DNA of 32,124 nucleotides from Thermoplasmatota archaeon (lineage in GTDB: Archaea; Thermoplasmatota; E2; DHVEG-1). Below are positions 1,741 to 25,444 of this stretch, piece after piece (the stretch's first letter is position 1; each line of letters begins with the position of its first letter). The DNA is taken from the NCBI GenBank assembly GCA_022866015.1, contig JALHTX010000140.1, positions 1-32,124 on the forward strand. The letters are read 5' to 3'. The notes beneath the pieces were generated by a model that had not been told where the DNA came from, did not search any database, and was given only the letters and a program-made list of their open reading frames with translations. The position numbers were made by a program, and so were the translations under genes.

Positions 1741-2409
1741 TCATAATATAGTTTTATCATAAATCTTCTTTAATTCTTCTTCATTCAAATACAGATAGTG
1801 TGACAAATCGATATTTCCTTTGGTGCTATGTCCCATAAGGATTTCTTTAACGGCATAGTCCCCGCCTCTCCTAGTCCACTCTTGAGAGAAGAACTTACGA
1901 AGGTCTTTAACTTTTATTGGTGCTTTTCTGAATAATCTGCTAATGTGAGAAGCACTAAAAAGGGATTTAAGTCTCTTATTCTTGTTGAATTGCTTTATAA
2001 ATGATTCTAAAGCCCTCTGAGCCTCTACATTAAAGAATGATACCCTGCTCCTCTTTGTTTTTGTTGTTTGATTATTCTTTGGATTATGTCTCACGTAGAC
2101 GGTTCTACTATTGATGTCAATATCCTTTAGCGTAAGTTGATAGAGTTCCTCTGCACGTAATCCACTACTTGCTCCTAATAAGACTATGGCTCGAATCTGC
2201 TTATTATACGTATTATTTTTAAAATATTCCAAGGTTGCTTCTATATTTTCTTTAGTCACTCTCTTAGGTGTATAACACGGCTCTTTAACAATCTTTAATT
2301 TATCTAACCAATCAACCCCTAGGTGTCTTAAAAACAATCGAAGCTGTAATAATCTTTTCCTATAGCTTGTAACACAGTATTTTTTCTGGATTTTATTGCA
2401 GTACAACAA
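1741..2409 (-). CDS. int: Tyrosine recombinase/integrase, catalytic C-terminal part (int(C)-like). The called start is only a TTG and the frame stays open upstream to 2628.
   Basis: Box I SGLRAEELYQL, then SHISRLFRK, then LMGHSTKGNIDLSHYLY (R...HxxR...H...Y pattern). The first codon at 2409..2407 is TTG. There is no ATG/GTG/TTG in the 73 open codons upstream. Confidence 0.85.
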   Translation of the reverse strand: MLYCNKIQKKYCVTSYRKRLLQLRLFLRHLGVDWLDKLKIVKEPCYTPKRVTKENIEATLEYFKNNTYNKQIRAIVLLGASSGLRAEELYQLTLKDIDINSRTVYVRHNPKNNQTTKTKRSRVSFFNVEAQRALESFIKQFNKNKRLKSLFSASHISRLFRKAPIKVKDLRKFFSQEWTRRGGDYAVKEILMGHSTKGNIDLSHYLYLNEEELKKIYDKTIL

Positions 2410-2574: not shown

Positions 2575-2647
2575 GGGCTTGTGGGGTAGCTTGGTATCCT
2601 TGTGGCTTCGGGAGCCATAGACTTGAGTTCAAATCTCAACAGGCCCA
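2575..2647 (+). tRNA. tRNA-Pro (anticodon CGG), no encoded CCA
   Basis: Hand-folded cloverleaf. Acceptor GGGCTTG/CAGGCCC; U8; D-loop with GG; anticodon stem GTGGC/GCCAT; loop TTCGGGA; T-arm TTGAG-TTCAAAT-CTCAA; discriminator A. Confidence 0.85.
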
Positions 2648-2845
2648 CTTTATCTTTTATTTTCTTGTTTCTTACAAAAATAGAGTACATAAAAATAGCA
2701 ATTTGTTAAATCTTCTCACTTACATTTGTTTACACAGATTTCATTACTCTATCATATATTAACTTCAAATCTTTTTCAGATCGAATCTTCAGATTGAAAG
2801 TTGTAATACTTAGATTAAACGATATTTAACATCTTAATATTATTT

Positions 2846-3961
2846 TTAGAGTAACTTAATCTTAATCACAATCATTTCTTCAGATGTTGCAAAGTTTCCT
2901 GCTTTATCAAAGGCTTTTGCTTTTATTCTATATATTCCAACTCCTTTTTCATCCCAAGTCCAGTTGTAAGGTTCATTGTTCAACGTTGCTTTTGTTTCAT
3001 TATTAATGAGAATTTCCACATAGCCCATACCAACAAATTCAGGATCACTTGCATTGATAGTGATATTAATGCGTCCAATAATTAAAGGATTCATTAATGG
3101 CCATCCAAATAGTTCTTCATTATTCAAGTATATCATAGAAAGTTTTGGTTGTTCAATTGAAACCTCAGGAGGTGTTTTATCTAGTTCATATTTAAAAAGC
3201 TGAATTGCGGTATCTACATCATAAACAGGCTCACCATTTTCTTGATATGAAAATTTATCACCGAAGTTCGATATTATCCATAGGAACCAATCACCTTGTG
3301 GATCATCATGACTTTGAATAGATATCCATCCTTCTCCATTACTAAGTTCAACGGATGTTGGTAGTATATATTCAAATTTTATGTGTTCATGAGATTTTGT
3401 TGTTTCATTCCAATATATTTCAGTATGTGTTATTTGCACATCTTCTGCAGATACATCAAAAGAAGCAATTTTGTTCTGTGGAGGCGCATTTGTTTTTTCT
3501 GATGGATCATCATAGAATTCTATGTAAAAATTCATTCCTTCAGGATCTCCATCAATAAATCCACCACCATCAAAGTATAAACAGAGACCCCACCAGGTAA
3601 TTTTTTCAATTTTTCCATTTACATCATAGAGATTTTCATACATTTTATAGCCATCATAACCAGCGTTTTTTTCAGATGTGAATGCTCGCTGTCCTTCATC
3701 TGGTGATGCTGGTGGTTGATCAAAAATGTTTACATATCTCCCATAATCATCCAAGGATTCCACAATTTCAGCATCAGCATTATAGATTTCATCGTTGCTA
3801 TTAACAAATTTATTTTCATTTGAAATTCCGGCTATTTCATTTGTTTGATTTCCATTGATACTTGGTAGTATTCCTGCTCCTAAAAACATACCTACAATTA
3901 CAAATATAAAAAATTTTCTTCTTTCTATCTTATACATACAAACTTCCCCCACATTTTCCAA
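2846..3961 (-). CDS. Secreted or membrane-anchored protein with a C-terminal Ig-like/beta-sandwich region. The likely true start is ATG 3937.
   Basis: ORF track. N-terminal hydrophobic segment KFFIFVIVGMFLGAGILP. The C-terminal INITINASDP...YRIKAKAFDKAGNFATSEE resembles bacterial Ig-like surface domains. Confidence 0.55.
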   Translation of the reverse strand: MENVGEVCMYKIERRKFFIFVIVGMFLGAGILPSINGNQTNEIAGISNENKFVNSNDEIYNADAEIVESLDDYGRYVNIFDQPPASPDEGQRAFTSEKNAGYDGYKMYENLYDVNGKIEKITWWGLCLYFDGGGFIDGDPEGMNFYIEFYDDPSEKTNAPPQNKIASFDVSAEDVQITHTEIYWNETTKSHEHIKFEYILPTSVELSNGEGWISIQSHDDPQGDWFLWIISNFGDKFSYQENGEPVYDVDTAIQLFKYELDKTPPEVSIEQPKLSMIYLNNEELFGWPLMNPLIIGRINITINASDPEFVGMGYVEILINNETKATLNNEPYNWTWDEKGVGIYRIKAKAFDKAGNFATSEEMIVIKIKLL

Positions 3962-22267: not shown

Positions 22268-22425
22268 TCAATCAACTTTAATTTTATCTACTTTTGTTCC
22301 TTTTCTCTCATGGACTTGGAATATATGCATTTCTAGGGCTTTGTTAGTACTAAAAATTTTTTTACAATATCTACATTTAGGTATAATTTTTCCACTTAAA
22401 TTTTTAATTTCTTTTTTTTATTCAT
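22268..22425 (-). pseudogene. C2H2 zinc-finger gene needing a -1 shift (or +1 nt) in an A8 tract to join its ATG to the finger
   Basis: ATG 22425..22423 reads MNKKKKLKI*. The frame entered after a -1 slip at A_AAA_AAG (22412-22419 is T8 on the plus strand) reads EIKNLSGKIIPKCRYCKKIFSTNKALEMHIFQVHERKGTKVDKIKVD*. Confidence 0.4.
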
Positions 22426-22537
22426 TAATCGCCGTGGTATGTGATAATGTAATTTTTTTCTGCCATTCATTAGTTTGAGGTATCTCAAAATCGTTCATCC
22501 AGTCATTAAATATATTGATATTTCTCATTTTTTTCAT
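22418..22537 (-). CDS. Hypothetical 39-aa protein
   Basis: Hand translation: MKKMRNINIFNDWMNDFEIPQTNEWQKKITLSHTTAINE. GGAAGG SD-like sequence upstream. Confidence 0.3.
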   Translation of the reverse strand: MKKMRNINIFNDWMNDFEIPQTNEWQKKITLSHTTAINE

Positions 22538-22594
22538 TTGTTTTTCCTTCCATCAAATCTAAAATTAATAATAGATTAATAGATATTAGAACTT

Positions 22595-22750
22595 TCAATT
22601 TGGCTTTATTTCATCTATATTTTTCCAAGCTTTTTCGACACTTTGTCCAAATGTTCTCACTTCTATTTTCTTTTTTAATCTAGAAATACGTATCCTCTCA
22701 CGCATTTCACTTATTCTTCTATCTATATGCTTTTCAAAAGCGTCACTCAT
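22595..22750 (-). CDS. Hypothetical 51-aa protein
   Basis: Hand translation: MSDAFEKHIDRRISEMRERIRISRLKKKIEVRTFGQSVEKAWKNIDEIKPN. GAGGGAG SD lies 6-7 nt upstream. Confidence 0.35.
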   Translation of the reverse strand: MSDAFEKHIDRRISEMRERIRISRLKKKIEVRTFGQSVEKAWKNIDEIKPN

Positions 22751-22811
22751 TTTTTTCTCCCTCTTTTAAACATATTAATACCAATAATAGTTATATTTCA
22801 ATAGATCAAGT

Positions 22812-22907
22812 TTATACATGTGTTCCAAATTTTATCATGTGATCTTTTAATGAATCGTAGGTTCTAAATTTTCGTCCACAATAAATACATCTGCAAGTTT
22901 TTGCCAT
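22812..22907 (-). CDS. C2H2-like zinc-finger protein, 31 aa
   Basis: Hand translation: MAKTCRCIYCGRKFRTYDSLKDHMIKFGTHV. Starts 14 nt after the RHH-1 stop. Confidence 0.5.
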   Translation of the reverse strand: MAKTCRCIYCGRKFRTYDSLKDHMIKFGTHV

Positions 22908-22920
22908 ATTTTCCCTTCTT

Positions 22921-23070
22921 TTAGTTTTGTTTTTTATAACACTCCATCATGTAGATAATCTGACGGCTAACAGGTCTACGTTCCTTATTAGCTAATTCTC
23001 TAAGCTGTTTAAAATCTGCATCTGAAAGGCTGATTGTTGTTCTTTTAGTCATAGATTTTTTCCCCCGCAT
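22921..23070 (-). CDS. Ribbon-helix-helix (CopG/Arc/MetJ-type) protein, RHH-1
   Basis: Hand translation: MRGKKSMTKRTTISLSDADFKQLRELANKERRPVSRQIIYMMECYKKQN. GAGGGAGA SD upstream. Alternative start at ATG 23052. Confidence 0.7.
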   Translation of the reverse strand: MRGKKSMTKRTTISLSDADFKQLRELANKERRPVSRQIIYMMECYKKQN

Positions 23071-23097
23071 AAAATCTCCCTCTTATTCTTATTAGTA

Positions 23098-23179
23098 TTA
23101 TGCAAAGTTATATAATATTAAGTAACTATACTATAATATAAATAACTTTGTGCATAACATTAAATACATTTATGCATAA
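23098..23179. promoter_or_regulatory. Promoter/operator region of RHH-1 with three TGCA(T/A)A motifs
   Basis: TTATGCAAA 23098-23106, TGCATAA 23151-23157, TATGCATAA 23171-23179. An A/T-rich TATA-like CTATAATATAAAT lies between them. Confidence 0.4.
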
Positions 23180-23238
23180 TTAATATCTGCGATAATGAAA
23201 TAGCCTACTCGCATTTTTAAAAAAAAGCACCCAATAAA

Positions 23239-23379
23239 TTATTTTTCCTTTTGTTGTTTTAAATAAAAATGCATCATGTAAACGAGCTGACGGCTAATAG
23301 GTCGATGTTCTTCTTTAGCTAATTCTCTAAGTTGTTTTTGCTCTTCATCTGAAAGGCTGATTGTTGTTCTTTTAGCCAT
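23239..23379 (-). CDS. Ribbon-helix-helix protein, RHH-2 (paralogue of RHH-1)
   Basis: Hand translation: MAKRTTISLSDEEQKQLRELAKEEHRPISRQLVYMMHFYLKQQKEK. 29 of 43 aligned residues are identical to RHH-1 (hand count). GGAGTG SD upstream. Confidence 0.7.
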   Translation of the reverse strand: MAKRTTISLSDEEQKQLRELAKEEHRPISRQLVYMMHFYLKQQKEK

Positions 23380-23395
23380 AAAAATCACTCCGCTG

Positions 23396-23538
23396 TATGC
23401 ATAATTGCATATTTCAACATTATTATTTTTTCATATTTTTCACATTTAATTATTGTTATGCAAAAGAGAATAACATTAATAAAAATAACATATTATAATA
23501 TAACAATGCATAACTTTAAATACAAATATGCAATATGC
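23396..23538. promoter_or_regulatory. Promoter/operator region of RHH-2, paralogous to 23098-23179
   Basis: TATGCATAA 23396-23404, TTGCATAT 23405-23412, TTATGCAAA 23456-23464, ATGCATAA 23506-23513, TATGCAATATGC 23527-23538. Confidence 0.4.
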
Positions 23539-23832
23539 TTATTGATGGTTGTTGAGGAAATGTGAAAACAACTCCTAGCAATCTATAATAGTTAAACAAA
23601 ATCCTTGGGGATGATGGGCTTAATCTTTTAAAAAAAACATCCTTTAGATCGCTCCGCACAGTAAAGAGATTCCTCTCCAATACCCTTTCATCCCTATCCC
23701 ATCTCAACATTTTCAATATTAATTTCTACGTTCATTGAAAAAATAGTTTGTGTCAAAAAAAAAGTATTAATGATGCAAAGAAAGAGTTGTTTTCATTGAT
23801 TCTTCTTTTATGCTATATCTGCTCCCTCAAAC

Positions 23833-24030
23833 CTACCATTTCCTTTTCATTTTCATTCTTTCAGCATCTTCGTCTTTTCTATTAGTATTAATCTTTGTTT
23901 TTTTCAAGTATTCTTCTAAGCATAATTTACAAATAGCAACAATTTCTAGTCCATTGTCACCTGTTGTATAATGAATGGTTATGTCCTCTGCCTGAAAAAC
24001 TTTACCACATCTATTACATATATATTTCAT
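23833..24030 (-). CDS. Zinc-ribbon protein, 65 aa
   Basis: ORF track. CNRC...CKLC. AAGGTGA SD upstream. The ATG abuts the RHH-3 stop. Confidence 0.55.
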   Translation of the reverse strand: MKYICNRCGKVFQAEDITIHYTTGDNGLEIVAICKLCLEEYLKKTKINTNRKDEDAERMKMKRKW

Positions 24031-24195
24031 TTATTTCACCTTATTATGCCCGCTTAATTTATTATTTTTTATGTAGAAATTTGTCATATAAACTATTTGT
24101 CTGCTATATGGTCTTTCTTCTTCTTTTGCGAGTTTTTTGATTAGTGTGTTTTCTTTTTTTGTTAGGGATATGTTCATTCTTATTCTTTTTTTCAT
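24031..24195 (-). CDS. Ribbon-helix-helix protein, RHH-3
   Basis: Hand translation: MKKRIRMNISLTKKENTLIKKLAKEEERPYSRQIVYMTNFYIKNNKLSGHNKVK. Shares the ISL...L..LAKEE.RP.SRQ.(V/I)YM core with RHH-1 and RHH-2. Confidence 0.65.
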   Translation of the reverse strand: MKKRIRMNISLTKKENTLIKKLAKEEERPYSRQIVYMTNFYIKNNKLSGHNKVK

Positions 24196-24199
24196 GTTT

Positions 24200-24246
24200 T
24201 ACACAAACATGTAATAATTTTACACATTTATATGCCTTTGTACACA
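24200..24246. promoter_or_regulatory. Three phased TACACA repeats in the divergent intergenic region next to RHH-3
   Basis: TACACA at 24200, 24221 and 24241, spaced 21 and 20 nt apart. The first starts 5 nt from the RHH-3 ATG. Confidence 0.4.
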
Positions 24247-24312
24247 ATGATATATACCACCTGTTGCATACTACCATCATCCGACAAATTTTGGAAAGGA
24301 CAGGTGAGGTCA

Positions 24313-24402
24313 ATGGAGATCATCGAACAAGTAAAACGACTGTTGGAATCACATATGATAAACAGTGGAATCAGAAATTTACTTCCGGAGCCTATGACTT
24401 AA
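24313..24402 (+). CDS. Micro-ORF 1 (29 aa) behind the conserved GGAAAGGACAGGTGA leader
   Basis: Hand translation: MEIIEQVKRLLESHMINSGIRNLLPEPMT. AGGTGA lies 5 nt before the ATG. Confidence 0.3.
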   Translation: MEIIEQVKRLLESHMINSGIRNLLPEPMT

Positions 24403-24410
24403 CGTTAACT

Positions 24411-24470
24411 CTGAAAGATAAGGATGCGAGATAAACGAAATATCAAGGGCGATTATATCGTCCAAATCTC
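24411..24470 (+). repeat. 60-nt conserved intergenic element, copy 1
   Basis: CTGAAAGATAAGGATGCGAGATAAACGAAATATCAAGGGCGATTATATCGTCCAAATCTC. 50 of 60 ungapped matches to copy 2 (hand count). Confidence 0.6.
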
Positions 24471-24489
24471 ATTTAGGAGGAGAAATAAT

Positions 24490-24771
24490 ATGACAGAGAC
24501 AGATTGTGAAGAATGTAATAATAAATTAGGTATTCTAGAAGGGTATTATCACCCTACATTAGGAAAAAGGTTTTTAGTATGCAAGGAATGTTTTGGTAAA
24601 GTAGACGAAAGTATGCAAAGATGGAGCAAGTTTTGTCTTTCAGATTCATTCAACGCAGAATCACATAAGATTGACATCGAAGATGCGTGGAATAACAGTA
24701 TATCAAATGATCTTCCTTTGCAAAAATGGTTTAGGAATCTTTGGATTAAAATAGGATGTCCGGGTGCATAG
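24490..24771 (+). CDS. Zinc-ribbon protein, 93 aa
   Basis: AGGAGGAG SD then ATG 24490. MTETDCEECNNKLG...LVCKECFGK. The track start 24424 would read through the repeat element. Confidence 0.5.
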   Translation: MTETDCEECNNKLGILEGYYHPTLGKRFLVCKECFGKVDESMQRWSKFCLSDSFNAESHKIDIEDAWNNSISNDLPLQKWFRNLWIKIGCPGA

Positions 24772-24808
24772 AATAAGATATAAAACCCGGAAAGGACAGG
24801 TGAAATCA

Positions 24809-24931
24809 ATGAATATGGAGAGAGAATATACGGTCTTTGAAAACGATATGGACTATAGGAAGAGAAAACGACTTCAAGCATTAGAAGCGGATGACTTTAG
24901 AGGAGCAATATTTACAAGGATGGATAGATGA
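24809..24931 (+). CDS. Micro-ORF 2 (40 aa) behind the same conserved leader
   Basis: Hand translation: MNMEREYTVFENDMDYRKRKRLQALEADDFRGAIFTRMDR. Leader GGAAAGGACAGGTGAAATCA precedes the ATG. Confidence 0.3.
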   Translation: MNMEREYTVFENDMDYRKRKRLQALEADDFRGAIFTRMDR

Positions 24932-24946
24932 GTTACATATCTAACG

Positions 24947-25006
24947 CTGAAAACTAAGAAATCGAGATAATCGAAATATTAAGGACGAGTATATCGCCCA
25001 AATCTC
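24947..25006 (+). repeat. 60-nt conserved intergenic element, copy 2
   Basis: CTGAAAACTAAGAAATCGAGATAATCGAAATATTAAGGACGAGTATATCGCCCAAATCTC. Confidence 0.6.
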
Positions 25007-25180
25007 TTTTTTTTAAACAATTGTTTAGGAGAGATTTATAAGTAATTAGTTGTTTTGAAATTGTAGTTTAGAAGGAAGAAAAAATGACTGGGGATAAAAA
25101 TTAATATAAATATAGGAAAGAGGGAGATATAAATAGAAGAAATAAAAAAAGAGAGAGAGAAGAAGAAAAAGTAGAAGAAG

Positions 25181-25444
25181 ATGAACAGACGAAGAATGAT
25201 TTGGAATAGGTTTGAGGTGAGACAAATGAAAGATGAAAAATATCCCAAAGACGAAGACAAAAGGAGCAAAAAACGACTAAGAAAACTAAGAAAAGAAGAA
25301 GAAAAATACGAAGAAACGCAGAAAGAAGAAAAAGAAAAAATACAAAAAGATAAAAACATAGATGAAGAAGAAGACGAAGAAAAAGAAGAAGATGAATATG
25401 CAAATTATTCAGAAAAAAGAAAAGTAGAAGATAATAACATGTAG
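25181..25444 (+). CDS. Lys/Glu/Arg-rich low-complexity protein encoded in a polypurine tract
   Basis: ORF track. Same strand as the neighbouring modules. The antisense ORFs are F/L/S low-complexity shadows. Confidence 0.35.
   Translation: MNRRRMIWNRFEVRQMKDEKYPKDEDKRSKKRLRKLRKEEEKYEETQKEEKEKIQKDKNIDEEEDEEKEEDEYANYSEKRKVEDNNM

Follow-up and report, generated by a model that had tools for sequence, protein, structure and literature searches.

Three genes encoding very small ribbon-helix-helix (RHH) proteins, here termed RHH-1, RHH-2 and RHH-3, lie on the minus strand of a 32,124 nt contig from a Thermoplasmatota archaeon (JALHTX010000140.1, assembly GCA_022866015.1), the whole of which is referred to below as the window. 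It is a segment of archaeal chromosome, with a GC content of approximately 30%, harbouring the proteasome-alpha/SBDS/Rrp4/Rrp41/Rrp42 superoperon, the genes for adenylosuccinate synthetase, prolyl-tRNA synthetase (ProRS), triose-phosphate isomerase, transaldolase and ribosomal proteins L18e, L13 and S9, and two tRNAs. The RHH genes belong to a group of eleven tiny genes, encoding proteins of 29-93 amino acids (aa), found within 3 kb (22418-25444); the other members are a C2H2 zinc finger, a zinc ribbon (ZnR65) and the open reading frames (ORFs) p93, p29, p39, p51, p55 and p87 (Table 1).

The ProRS of the window is 90% identical to that of the metagenome-assembled genome (MAG) Mix_mud04.2021.02.43, 72-83% identical to those of a large set of 'Thermoplasmatales/Thermoplasmatota archaeon' MAGs, and at most 62% identical to those of other Thermoplasmata; by this measure, its nearest genomes are uncultured Thermoplasmatota MAGs. 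For comparison, 62 related loci (323 kb in total) were fetched, individual members of which are cited below in the form L001. The relatives include loci from the MAGs SM1-50 and SG8-52-3, which we take to represent Marine Benthic Group D (MBG-D, Thermoprofundales); a search of the literature for this RHH family in Thermoprofundales/MBG-D found nothing. Two of the contigs carrying RHH cassettes, L020 (CALMFM010000114.1) and L024 (protein P0082), are labelled in their source records as 'Firmicutes bacterium' and 'Promethearchaeota archaeon' respectively, probably through binning errors in public MAGs.

Table 1. Features of the RHH gene cluster, in the coordinates of the window
Feature	Position	Strand	Description
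p39	22418-22537	-	Conserved tiny gene downstream of zinc finger
p51	22595-22750	-	Conserved tiny gene downstream of zinc finger
C2H2 zinc-finger gene	22812-22907	-	31 aa, single finger; starts 13 nt after RHH-1 stop
RHH-1	22921-23052	-	43 aa from ATG 23052 (MTKRTTISL...); alternative ATG 23070 gives 49 aa (22921-23070)
RHH-1 upstream control region	23098-23179	-	Boxes a1, a2 and a3
Box a3	core 23101-23104	-	TTTGCATAA; follows second TATA-like TTATATAAC (23107-23115)
Box a2	core 23151-23154	-	RHH-1 promoter
Box a1	23170-23179	-	TTATGCATAA, perfect palindrome; TGCA core at 23173
RHH-2	23239-23379	-	46 aa
RHH-2 upstream control region	23396-23532	-	Layout as in RHH-1 plus proximal block
Additional proximal block (conserved)	23396-23431	-	Terminal imperfect palindrome ATATGCAATTATGCATA (b4/b5, cores 23406 and 23398)
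Box b3	core 23459-23462	-	RHH-2 promoter
Box b2	core 23507-23510	-	RHH-2 promoter
TATA-like element	23514-23523	-	GTATTTAAAG; RHH-2 promoter
Box b1	core 23529-23532	-	RHH-2 promoter
G-tract/purine-rich element	23575-23713	-	Conserved, non-coding; 200-300 nt upstream of RHH-2 orthologues wherever found
ZnR65	23833-24030	-	Zinc-ribbon gene, 65 aa, CxxC..CxxC; ATG abuts RHH-3 stop
RHH-3	24031-24195	-	54 aa; no Shine-Dalgarno sequence; leader predicted very short
RHH-3 promoter	24200-24246	-	Three TGTGTA boxes (TACACA on plus strand)
Rest of bidirectional intergenic module	24247-24313	.	Conserved; leader and Shine-Dalgarno sequence of divergent small ORF
p29	24314-24402	+	29 aa, GGTGAGG Shine-Dalgarno sequence; first of the plus-strand row of small genes
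p93	24488-24771	+	CxxC zinc-ribbon protein
p55	24809-24931	+	True start ATG 24809 (MNMEREY...), not GTG 24764 of the ORF list
p87	25181-25444	+	Plus-strand row of small genes

Three minimal ribbon-helix-helix proteins

The three proteins share the core ISL..LA..E.RP.SRQ..YM, and a six-frame scan of the window with hidden Markov models of the family recovered exactly these three members, RHH-1 matching with an E value of 9.7e-29. An earlier note on this DNA had already described three RHH paralogues with a common core; the start of RHH-1 is amended here, a length of 43 aa being likelier than 49. In 14 loci a conserved GGGGGA Shine-Dalgarno sequence, at 23061-23066 in the window, precedes a variable start codon (ATG, GTG, TTG or ATT), making the start at 23052 the most likely; the upstream ATG at 23070 is found only in the window and L001.

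The RHH fold proposed in the same note is borne out by several comparisons. RHH-2 passes the threshold of the Pfam family RHH_5 (PF07878; 27.1 bits, cutoff 26) and RHH-1, at 25.7 bits, falls 0.3 below it; RHH-3 alone matches nothing in Pfam. When the RHH-3 family was aligned with the RHH-1/2 family using hhalign, the match had a probability of 99.1% and an E value of 1.4e-18, indicating at the level of sequence profiles that the two are unambiguously homologous. The AlphaFold2 model of RHH-2 (predicted local distance difference test score 75.5) has the expected topology, with residues 1-10 extended and helices spanning residues 11-24 and 28-45; the N-terminal strand is not formed, as expected for a monomer. 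Nearly all of the top 35 matches to this model in a Foldseek search of the PDB were RHH proteins, including AmrZ, CopG, CopA-SO, ParG, Arc, AtaR and, at rank 22, the pRN1 protein ORF56 (PDB 3ft7), with TM scores of 0.6-0.74 and E values of 0.2-1 that are weak because the domain has only 46 residues. A profile of 26 RHH-2 homologues had CopG as its sole match in the PDB, end-to-end and with a sub-threshold E value of 0.15. All three genes are thus predicted to encode minimal single-domain RHH proteins of a Thermoplasmatota chromosome, the domain filling the whole 43-54 aa with no C-terminal extension, and the proteins would be expected to dimerise and to bind DNA sequence-specifically through their paired strands. 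Homologues are plentiful: 126 cluster representatives were found for RHH-2, at 72-100% identity, and 124 for RHH-3, with most in either family being 75-95% identical.

The coding parts of RHH-1 and RHH-2 are 83% identical at the DNA level over 127 nt, and the alignment of the two units begins at the distal TGCA box and extends through the stop codon, the leader of RHH-2 being approximately 31 nt the longer, as would follow from the tandem duplication inclusive of promoters that had been suggested previously. Since RHH-2 is followed by RHH-1 in 15 of the 16 loci in which both positions are visible, this duplication is judged to be ancient and fixed, rather than a local event. RHH-2 looks monocistronic, and a T8 run follows it (23219-23226 on the plus strand). 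The leader of RHH-2 contains an upstream ORF of 11 codons, which was rejected as a candidate feature: L010, L011 and L019 do not preserve the start codon, nor L004 the stop codon.

Two types of repeated box at the RHH promoters

TGCA-centred boxes are present upstream of RHH-1 and RHH-2 where they had been reported. Boxes a1 and a2 of RHH-1, 22 bp apart, enclose the TATA-like sequence GTATTTAAtG (23158-23167). Across 14 RHH-1 loci, the strings GTAT.TA..GTTAT..A and TA..TAA...T...TAAT are invariant, and the blocks GTATTTAAAG-TTATG(C/T)A and TATATAAC-tTTGCATAAT, the Shine-Dalgarno sequence, and TTGCATAAT with TTATGYA beside the TATA-like box are invariant or nearly so. At RHH-2, the palindrome ATATGCAATTATGCATA of the additional proximal block is located just 5' of a GGAGTGA Shine-Dalgarno sequence (23385-23391). 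Similarly, the strings TAT.TAA..TTAT..AT and AAAAATAA.AA..TTGA.ATATGCAAT, along with the blocks TATTTAAAG-TTATG(C/T)AT, TTATA.TATAATATG and, preceding the Shine-Dalgarno sequence, the proximal AAAAAATAATAATGTTGAAATATGCAAT.GTGCATA, are invariant or nearly so in 11 RHH-2 loci, TTATGYAT and ATATGCAAT being conserved among these promoters.

The conserved half-sites TTATGCA and TGCATAA constitute the two halves of the palindrome TTATGCATAA. Seven of the 12 instances of these heptamers in the window are concentrated within 420 nt, and a cluster as dense arose in none of 300 first-order Markov simulations, whether based on the composition of the whole window or on that of the local AT-rich sequence. 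A scan of the sequence collection with the 17-mer GTATTTAAAGTTATGYA, intended to define a regulon, was abandoned as too unspecific, chance matches in AT-rich bacteria being among the matches listed.

The RHH-3 promoter has a different type of box. TACACA hexamers on the plus strand occupy 24200-24205, 24221-24226 and 24241-24246, in agreement with the earlier description of three copies phased 20-21 nt apart beside the RHH-3 start codon; read in the direction of the gene, as TGTGTA, they lie at -51 to -46, -31 to -26 and -10 to -5 relative to the ATG, with spacings of 21 and 20 nt and 4 nt between the nearest box and the ATG, and bracket the TATA-like GCATATAAAT (24227-24236). Three such hexamers within 50 nt occurred in none of 300 simulations under a Markov model of the whole window and in 4% of those under a model for which the intergenic regions tested had themselves supplied the training data, a conservative test. 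The clustering of both box types therefore exceeds what is expected of random DNA with the composition of the window.

The boxes recur in orthologous promoters of many genomes, and in this respect the operator-like repeats behave like functional cis-elements. In the case of RHH-3, the 115 nt separating it from its divergent neighbour are almost invariant over 40 distinct loci, with the consensus GTATATATCAT-TGTGTA-cAAAggcATATAAgt-(g/a)TGTAAAATTATTACATgtt-TGTGTA-aa..ATG, in which boxes 1 and 3 and the ATATAA are at least 95% conserved. The distance from TATA box to transcription start is usually around 26 nt in archaea; from the start position predicted on this basis, the boxes appear to cover the beginning of a near-leaderless mRNA.

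The RHH-3 promoter as part of a bidirectional module

The remainder of the intergenic module includes GTATATAT, a candidate TATA box for the divergent gene, which in related loci is usually a homologue of p55 and sometimes one of p29. In the window, the leaders and Shine-Dalgarno sequences of p29 and p55 are almost identical over 26 nt, CGGAAAGGACAGGTGA(A/G)(A/G)TCAATG (24290-24316 and 24788-24813, plus strand); the coding sequences that follow are unrelated despite this shared leader. The leader of the divergent gene also has a palindrome, CCGAAATTTGTCGG (CCAAAATTTGTCGG), at approximately 24283-24296, which is found at the same position in 40 loci and covaries, a change on one arm being compensated on the other (CCAA..TTGG in L044 and L049). 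This palindrome represents either a hairpin within the 5' untranslated region of the mRNA or a palindromic protein-binding site. Further repeats, of the GTAGTAT type with a period of approximately 14 nt, are located at 24250-24275 and are triplicated in L023 (around 3440-3490). A moderately conserved TATGCA half-box, with its core at 24265, occurs in the divergent half of the region and might connect the boxes of RHH-1/2 with the promoter of RHH-3 and p55.

The complete RHH-3-type module, comprising the start of a divergent small ORF, the spacer and three boxes, is also found without an RHH gene in nine other loci (L021, position 1902; L026, 906; L027, 540; L030, 897; L032, 528; L034, 1137; L041, 952; L048, 955; and L045, 154 on the minus strand). 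These extra copies, none of which is present in the window, are typically around 1.6 kb 5' of the real RHH-3 gene. Several face just 70-100 nt or so of conserved non-coding sequence followed by a convergent gene, and such a module may drive the expression of a small RNA. Modules without an RHH gene are consistent with a factor acting in trans.

Proposed auto- and cross-regulation

The type of box changes together with the putative DNA-reading strand of the protein. The beta-strand KRTTISLS is identical in RHH-1 and RHH-2, is invariant in their family and is paired with TGCA boxes; the corresponding RHH-3 strand is RIRMNISLT, of which R-M-N-I-S-L is invariant in its family, RMNISLT being paired with TGTGTA boxes. 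Because the isoleucine and leucine must face the protein core, the outward positions would be R/T/S in RHH-1/2 and R/N/S in RHH-3. Each RHH gene had been thought to possess a private set of repeats, which is true of RHH-3 and its TGTGTA boxes and does not apply to RHH-1 and RHH-2, as these have the same type of box, the same promoter layout and the same strand. Given this sharing of box type and reading strand, cross-regulation between RHH-1 and RHH-2 is expected.

Negative auto- and cross-regulation in the manner of CopG and Arc, exerted at boxes flanking the TATA elements, is considered, with moderate confidence, the most likely explanation for this arrangement. Each RHH protein would dimerise and, through its paired N-terminal strands, read short boxes around its own TATA-like elements, such that accumulation of the protein shuts its own promoter. 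RHH-3 dimers would bind one face of the DNA at TGTGTA boxes two helical turns apart, one upstream of the TATA box, one just downstream of it and one over the predicted transcription start, repressing the operon of RHH-3 and the zinc ribbon and probably also affecting the divergent operon of small genes, which shares the same 115 bp control region. RHH-1 and RHH-2 would both bind the TGCA-centred, TTATGCATAA-like boxes at each of their promoters, forming an auto- and cross-regulated pair in which the RHH-1 promoter would have as its output the C2H2 finger together with p51 and p39. Both the assignment of boxes to proteins, and repression rather than activation as the outcome, are presumed. In favour of this model are the fold and family of the proteins, the clustering of the boxes, their conservation in orthologous promoters, the joint change of strand and box, the modules lacking an RHH gene, and the precedent of aCcr1 discussed below.

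A number of observations count against autoregulation. In DNA this rich in AT, the positions of TATA boxes and start sites are no more than guesses, and RHH-1 and RHH-2 each have two TATA-like candidates; the entire intergenic regions are conserved, so that the boxes are not singled out; boxes a1, b1 and b3 are only partly conserved, as is box 2 of RHH-3, which is degenerate (T(G/A)TGTA) among the 40 loci; the pairing of proteins with boxes amounts to a single contrast between two families; the real operators may instead be the GTAGTAT repeats or the palindrome CCGA..TCGG; and the structural model of RHH-3 is of low confidence, a fold search with it being uninformative. The first of the alternatives is that the RHH proteins have their targets elsewhere, with the boxes acting as core promoter or leader elements or being bound by other factors, for instance the zinc-finger proteins encoded alongside. 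It would account for the conservation of whole intergenic regions, rather than of boxes alone, and would parallel CdrS and aCcr1, which act mainly on other genes. In addition, strings resembling GTATTTAAAGTTATGYA and GTATTTAAAG-TTATGYA occupy promoter-like positions in unrelated archaea, from which it follows that part of the TGCA block is generic archaeal TATA context. However, the boxes show internal repetition, palindromic symmetry or a phasing of two helical turns, are common to two paralogous promoters, and switch type together with the DNA-reading strand; furthermore, autoregulation is the rule for minimal RHH proteins such as CopG, Arc, Mnt and omega. Targets lying elsewhere are accordingly regarded as rather unlikely, and regulation of the RHH genes by their own products as the better explanation.

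A recurrent cluster of tiny genes

Zinc-finger and zinc-ribbon genes directly follow RHH-1 and RHH-3 respectively, as the earlier note had stated, and the spacing is operon-like. The C2H2 gene, which is probably on the RHH-1 transcript, scores below the threshold of the Pfam family zf-C2H2_4 (E 1.3e-5; 25.9 bits, cutoff 27). A C2H2 finger follows RHH-1 in seven of 15 distinct loci, often succeeded by p51 and p39, which tblastn detected in the same order in L001, L009 and L011; in L004 and L005, p39 comes after the zinc finger and p51 was not detectable by tblastn, and in L023 and L046 the trio of finger, p51 and p39 follows p55 rather than RHH-1. ZnR65, the GGTGA Shine-Dalgarno sequence of which is inside the end of RHH-3, has only weak matches in Pfam, to zinc-ribbon domains of unknown function. 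Directly downstream of RHH-3 there is a zinc ribbon in 33 of 42 loci, often followed by p87.

All eleven tiny genes recur in related MAGs in shuffled order, and the only curated family assignments among them are RHH and zinc-finger matches. The pairs formed by RHH-2 with RHH-1 and by RHH-3 with the zinc ribbon recur across approximately 60 Thermoplasmatota loci, and on this distribution both are judged to be old.

The conserved G-tract/purine-rich element upstream of RHH-2 was found by nhmmer in 12 sequences including the window, representing 10 distinct loci (for instance L001 3796-3917, L011 2173-2305, L010 417-548 and L024 1400-1523). It consists of purine and G-tract runs (GGAGGGATGGGAAGGGATGAGGG...GGAGAGGAGAG...GGGATG), then a T-run/A-run and finally CCCATCATCCC, and has a G-quadruplex-like spacing within a genome of 30% GC. 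One possibility is a small RNA that terminates at the T-run. Two other interpretations were rejected: a structured RNA, on the basis of single-sequence fold z-scores of -0.2 and -1.3, no match in Rfam at E<=1 and no RNAalifold consensus, and a protein-coding sequence, ruled out by indels that are not multiples of three.

Chromosomal inheritance of the cluster

The earlier note likened the RHH genes to the switch sets of archaeal viruses and plasmids, a likeness that is not upheld. The context is one of chromosomal housekeeping genes, and the divergence of the RHH proteins tracks that of ProRS within the same MAGs: relative to the window, ProRS, RHH-2 and RHH-3 are 90%, 85% and 93% identical in Mix_mud04, 78%, 72% and 88% in PPR_0066, and 77%, 74% and 87% in Prado234; in SRP332253_co2_155, ProRS is 80% and RHH-2 76% identical, and RHH-3 was not found. 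As GC content is uniform across the region, no genes for replication, integration or virion structure were detected in or beside the cluster, and searches for defence and toxin genes found no match, the evidence points to a vertically inherited chromosomal gene set under strong constraint, rather than to a virus, a plasmid or a toxin-antitoxin locus.

It is nevertheless worth considering whether the cluster represents a mobile element or a remnant of one, for example a plasmid or virus that has integrated, with the RHH proteins being CopG-, omega- or SvtR-like regulators of that element. The flanking genes of the cassettes differ between loci, so that they stand in differing genomic contexts across MAGs, and gene order is shuffled; two or three copies of RHH-3 are present in some genomes; and there are weak PHROG matches to Arc-like and zinc-ribbon (Lar-like) proteins, the only mobile-element signal among the neighbours. 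Yet neither the cluster nor the DNA adjoining it was found to contain a Rep or other replication, integrase, capsid or partition gene, terminal repeats were not observed, and the GC content of the cluster equals that of its flanks; together with the parallel divergence of ProRS, this renders a mobile origin very unlikely. The sole recombinase is 20 kb or so away: a tyrosine-recombinase-like ORF (1741-2409, minus strand) adjoining tRNA-Pro(CGG) (2575-2648, plus strand), which may mark the edge of an integrated element and appears to be unrelated to the RHH cluster.

Still less probable, to the extent of being scarcely credible, is that the RHH proteins are antitoxins, or orphan antitoxins, of type II systems with the small downstream genes as toxins. 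Many RHH proteins are antitoxins, the domains of CopA, AtaR, MazE6 and VapB were among the Foldseek matches, and a small gene is indeed directly downstream of both RHH-1 and RHH-3. Against this, 43-54 aa filled by the RHH domain leave no toxin-binding tail; the downstream genes encode zinc proteins of 31 and 65 aa, for which no match to a toxin, in PADLOC or in NCBIfam was obtained; RHH-2 has no downstream partner; and inheritance looks strictly vertical. The view taken previously, that this is not a toxin-antitoxin locus, is therefore retained, there being no detectable toxin or defence partner.

Comparison with known systems

The mechanistically closest systems are CopG, Arc and omega, and the biologically closest are the chromosomal micro-RHH regulators of archaea, aCcr1 and CdrS/CdrL. 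CopG, Arc and Mnt act as repressors at their own promoters, where dimers bind cooperatively to sites that are symmetric or repeated and that overlap core promoter elements. CopG, the RepA protein of plasmid pMV158, is likewise a protein of approximately 45 aa consisting of the RHH domain only, in which the N-terminal strand MKKRLTITLS resembles the MAKRTTISLS of the proteins described here, and it was both the best PDB sequence match, full-length albeit at a sub-threshold E value, and one of the top structural matches. By contrast with CopG and with Arc and Mnt of phage P22, RHH-1/2/3 are chromosomal, archaeal and apparently vertically inherited, with no rep gene or phage context; there are three paralogues, with two types of box; R-P-x-S takes the place of the G-x-S/T/N turn usually found between the helices; and the promoters are of the TATA/BRE (B recognition element) type, rather than having -35 and -10 sequences. 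The omega repressor of pSM19035 and other inc18 plasmids acts at several promoters via arrays of short repeats that vary in number and orientation, comparable to the direct and inverted TGCA boxes at two promoters and the TGTGTA modules at several sites. Unlike these genes, omega is carried on a plasmid, where it governs copy number and partition as well as a toxin-antitoxin system, and its heptads abut, whereas the spacing here is 20-22 bp. ORF56 of pRN1 and SvtR, AvtR and E73 of crenarchaeal viruses are also minimal archaeal RHH repressors, but are encoded by mobile elements of Sulfolobales, a context of which RHH-1/2/3 show no sign.

Among chromosomal regulators, aCcr1 (the SiL_0190/SIRV2 gp21 clade) is an RHH protein of approximately 59 aa, 76-100% identical across its order and one of five small conserved RHH paralogues per Sulfolobales genome, which binds a 7 nt motif present twice in the cdvA promoter, at -10 to -2 and -46 to -40 (bioRxiv 10.1101/2022.07.28.501860). 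The positions of these motifs, around -10 and -43, match boxes 3 and 1 of RHH-3, in geometry only: aCcr1 belongs to another phylum, its box is AGTATTA as opposed to the TGCA-centred or TGTGTA boxes here, it targets cell-division genes, and it has known viral homologues. CdrS is a basic, essential chromosomal RHH factor of 61 aa with a symmetric motif, found in Halobacteria and other Euryarchaeota, and in Halobacteria the cdrS promoter is regulated by CdrL, which combines an RHH and a zinc-ribbon domain (PMC7439475, PMC8406309). The regulation of one RHH gene by another, with zinc ribbons nearby, is similar to the arrangement proposed here; however, the zinc-binding proteins of this cluster are separate genes, not fused domains, and CdrS is defined by its co-transcription with ftsZ2. 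In a six-frame search, neither the window nor any of the 62 related loci contained the tubulin signature GGGTG[ST]G, leaving these without the ftsZ2 synteny that characterises CdrS.

Implications

RHH-1, RHH-2 and RHH-3 are best filed under a known kind, the minimal autoregulatory RHH transcription factors, the working principle of which they leave unchanged; what sets them apart is the very high conservation of their promoters and the recurrent cluster of tiny genes. A broader possibility, speculative and more doubtful than not by a long way, is that the 3 kb cluster of eleven genes constitutes a lineage-wide master regulatory hub, of a rank with aCcr1 in Sulfolobales or CdrS in haloarchaea, in which RHH-3 would act in trans on a highly conserved bidirectional module copied with or without an RHH gene, and RHH-1 and RHH-2 would form a two-node switch over zinc-finger micro-proteins. 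Were this the case, the module copies lacking an RHH gene would serve as promoters for small RNAs or for tiny genes of other kinds.

The promoters are approximately 80% identical in DNA sequence between genomes in which ProRS is only 72-80% identical, and such conservation provides testable pairs of protein and operator for heterologous assays. Regulation in uncultured benthic Thermoplasmatota is essentially unexplored territory, and the RHH cluster contains some of the most conserved small genes and non-coding regions in the sampled loci. It illustrates that regulators too small for the customary ORF cut-offs may belong to the core, vertically inherited gene complement and need not be the cargo of mobile elements.

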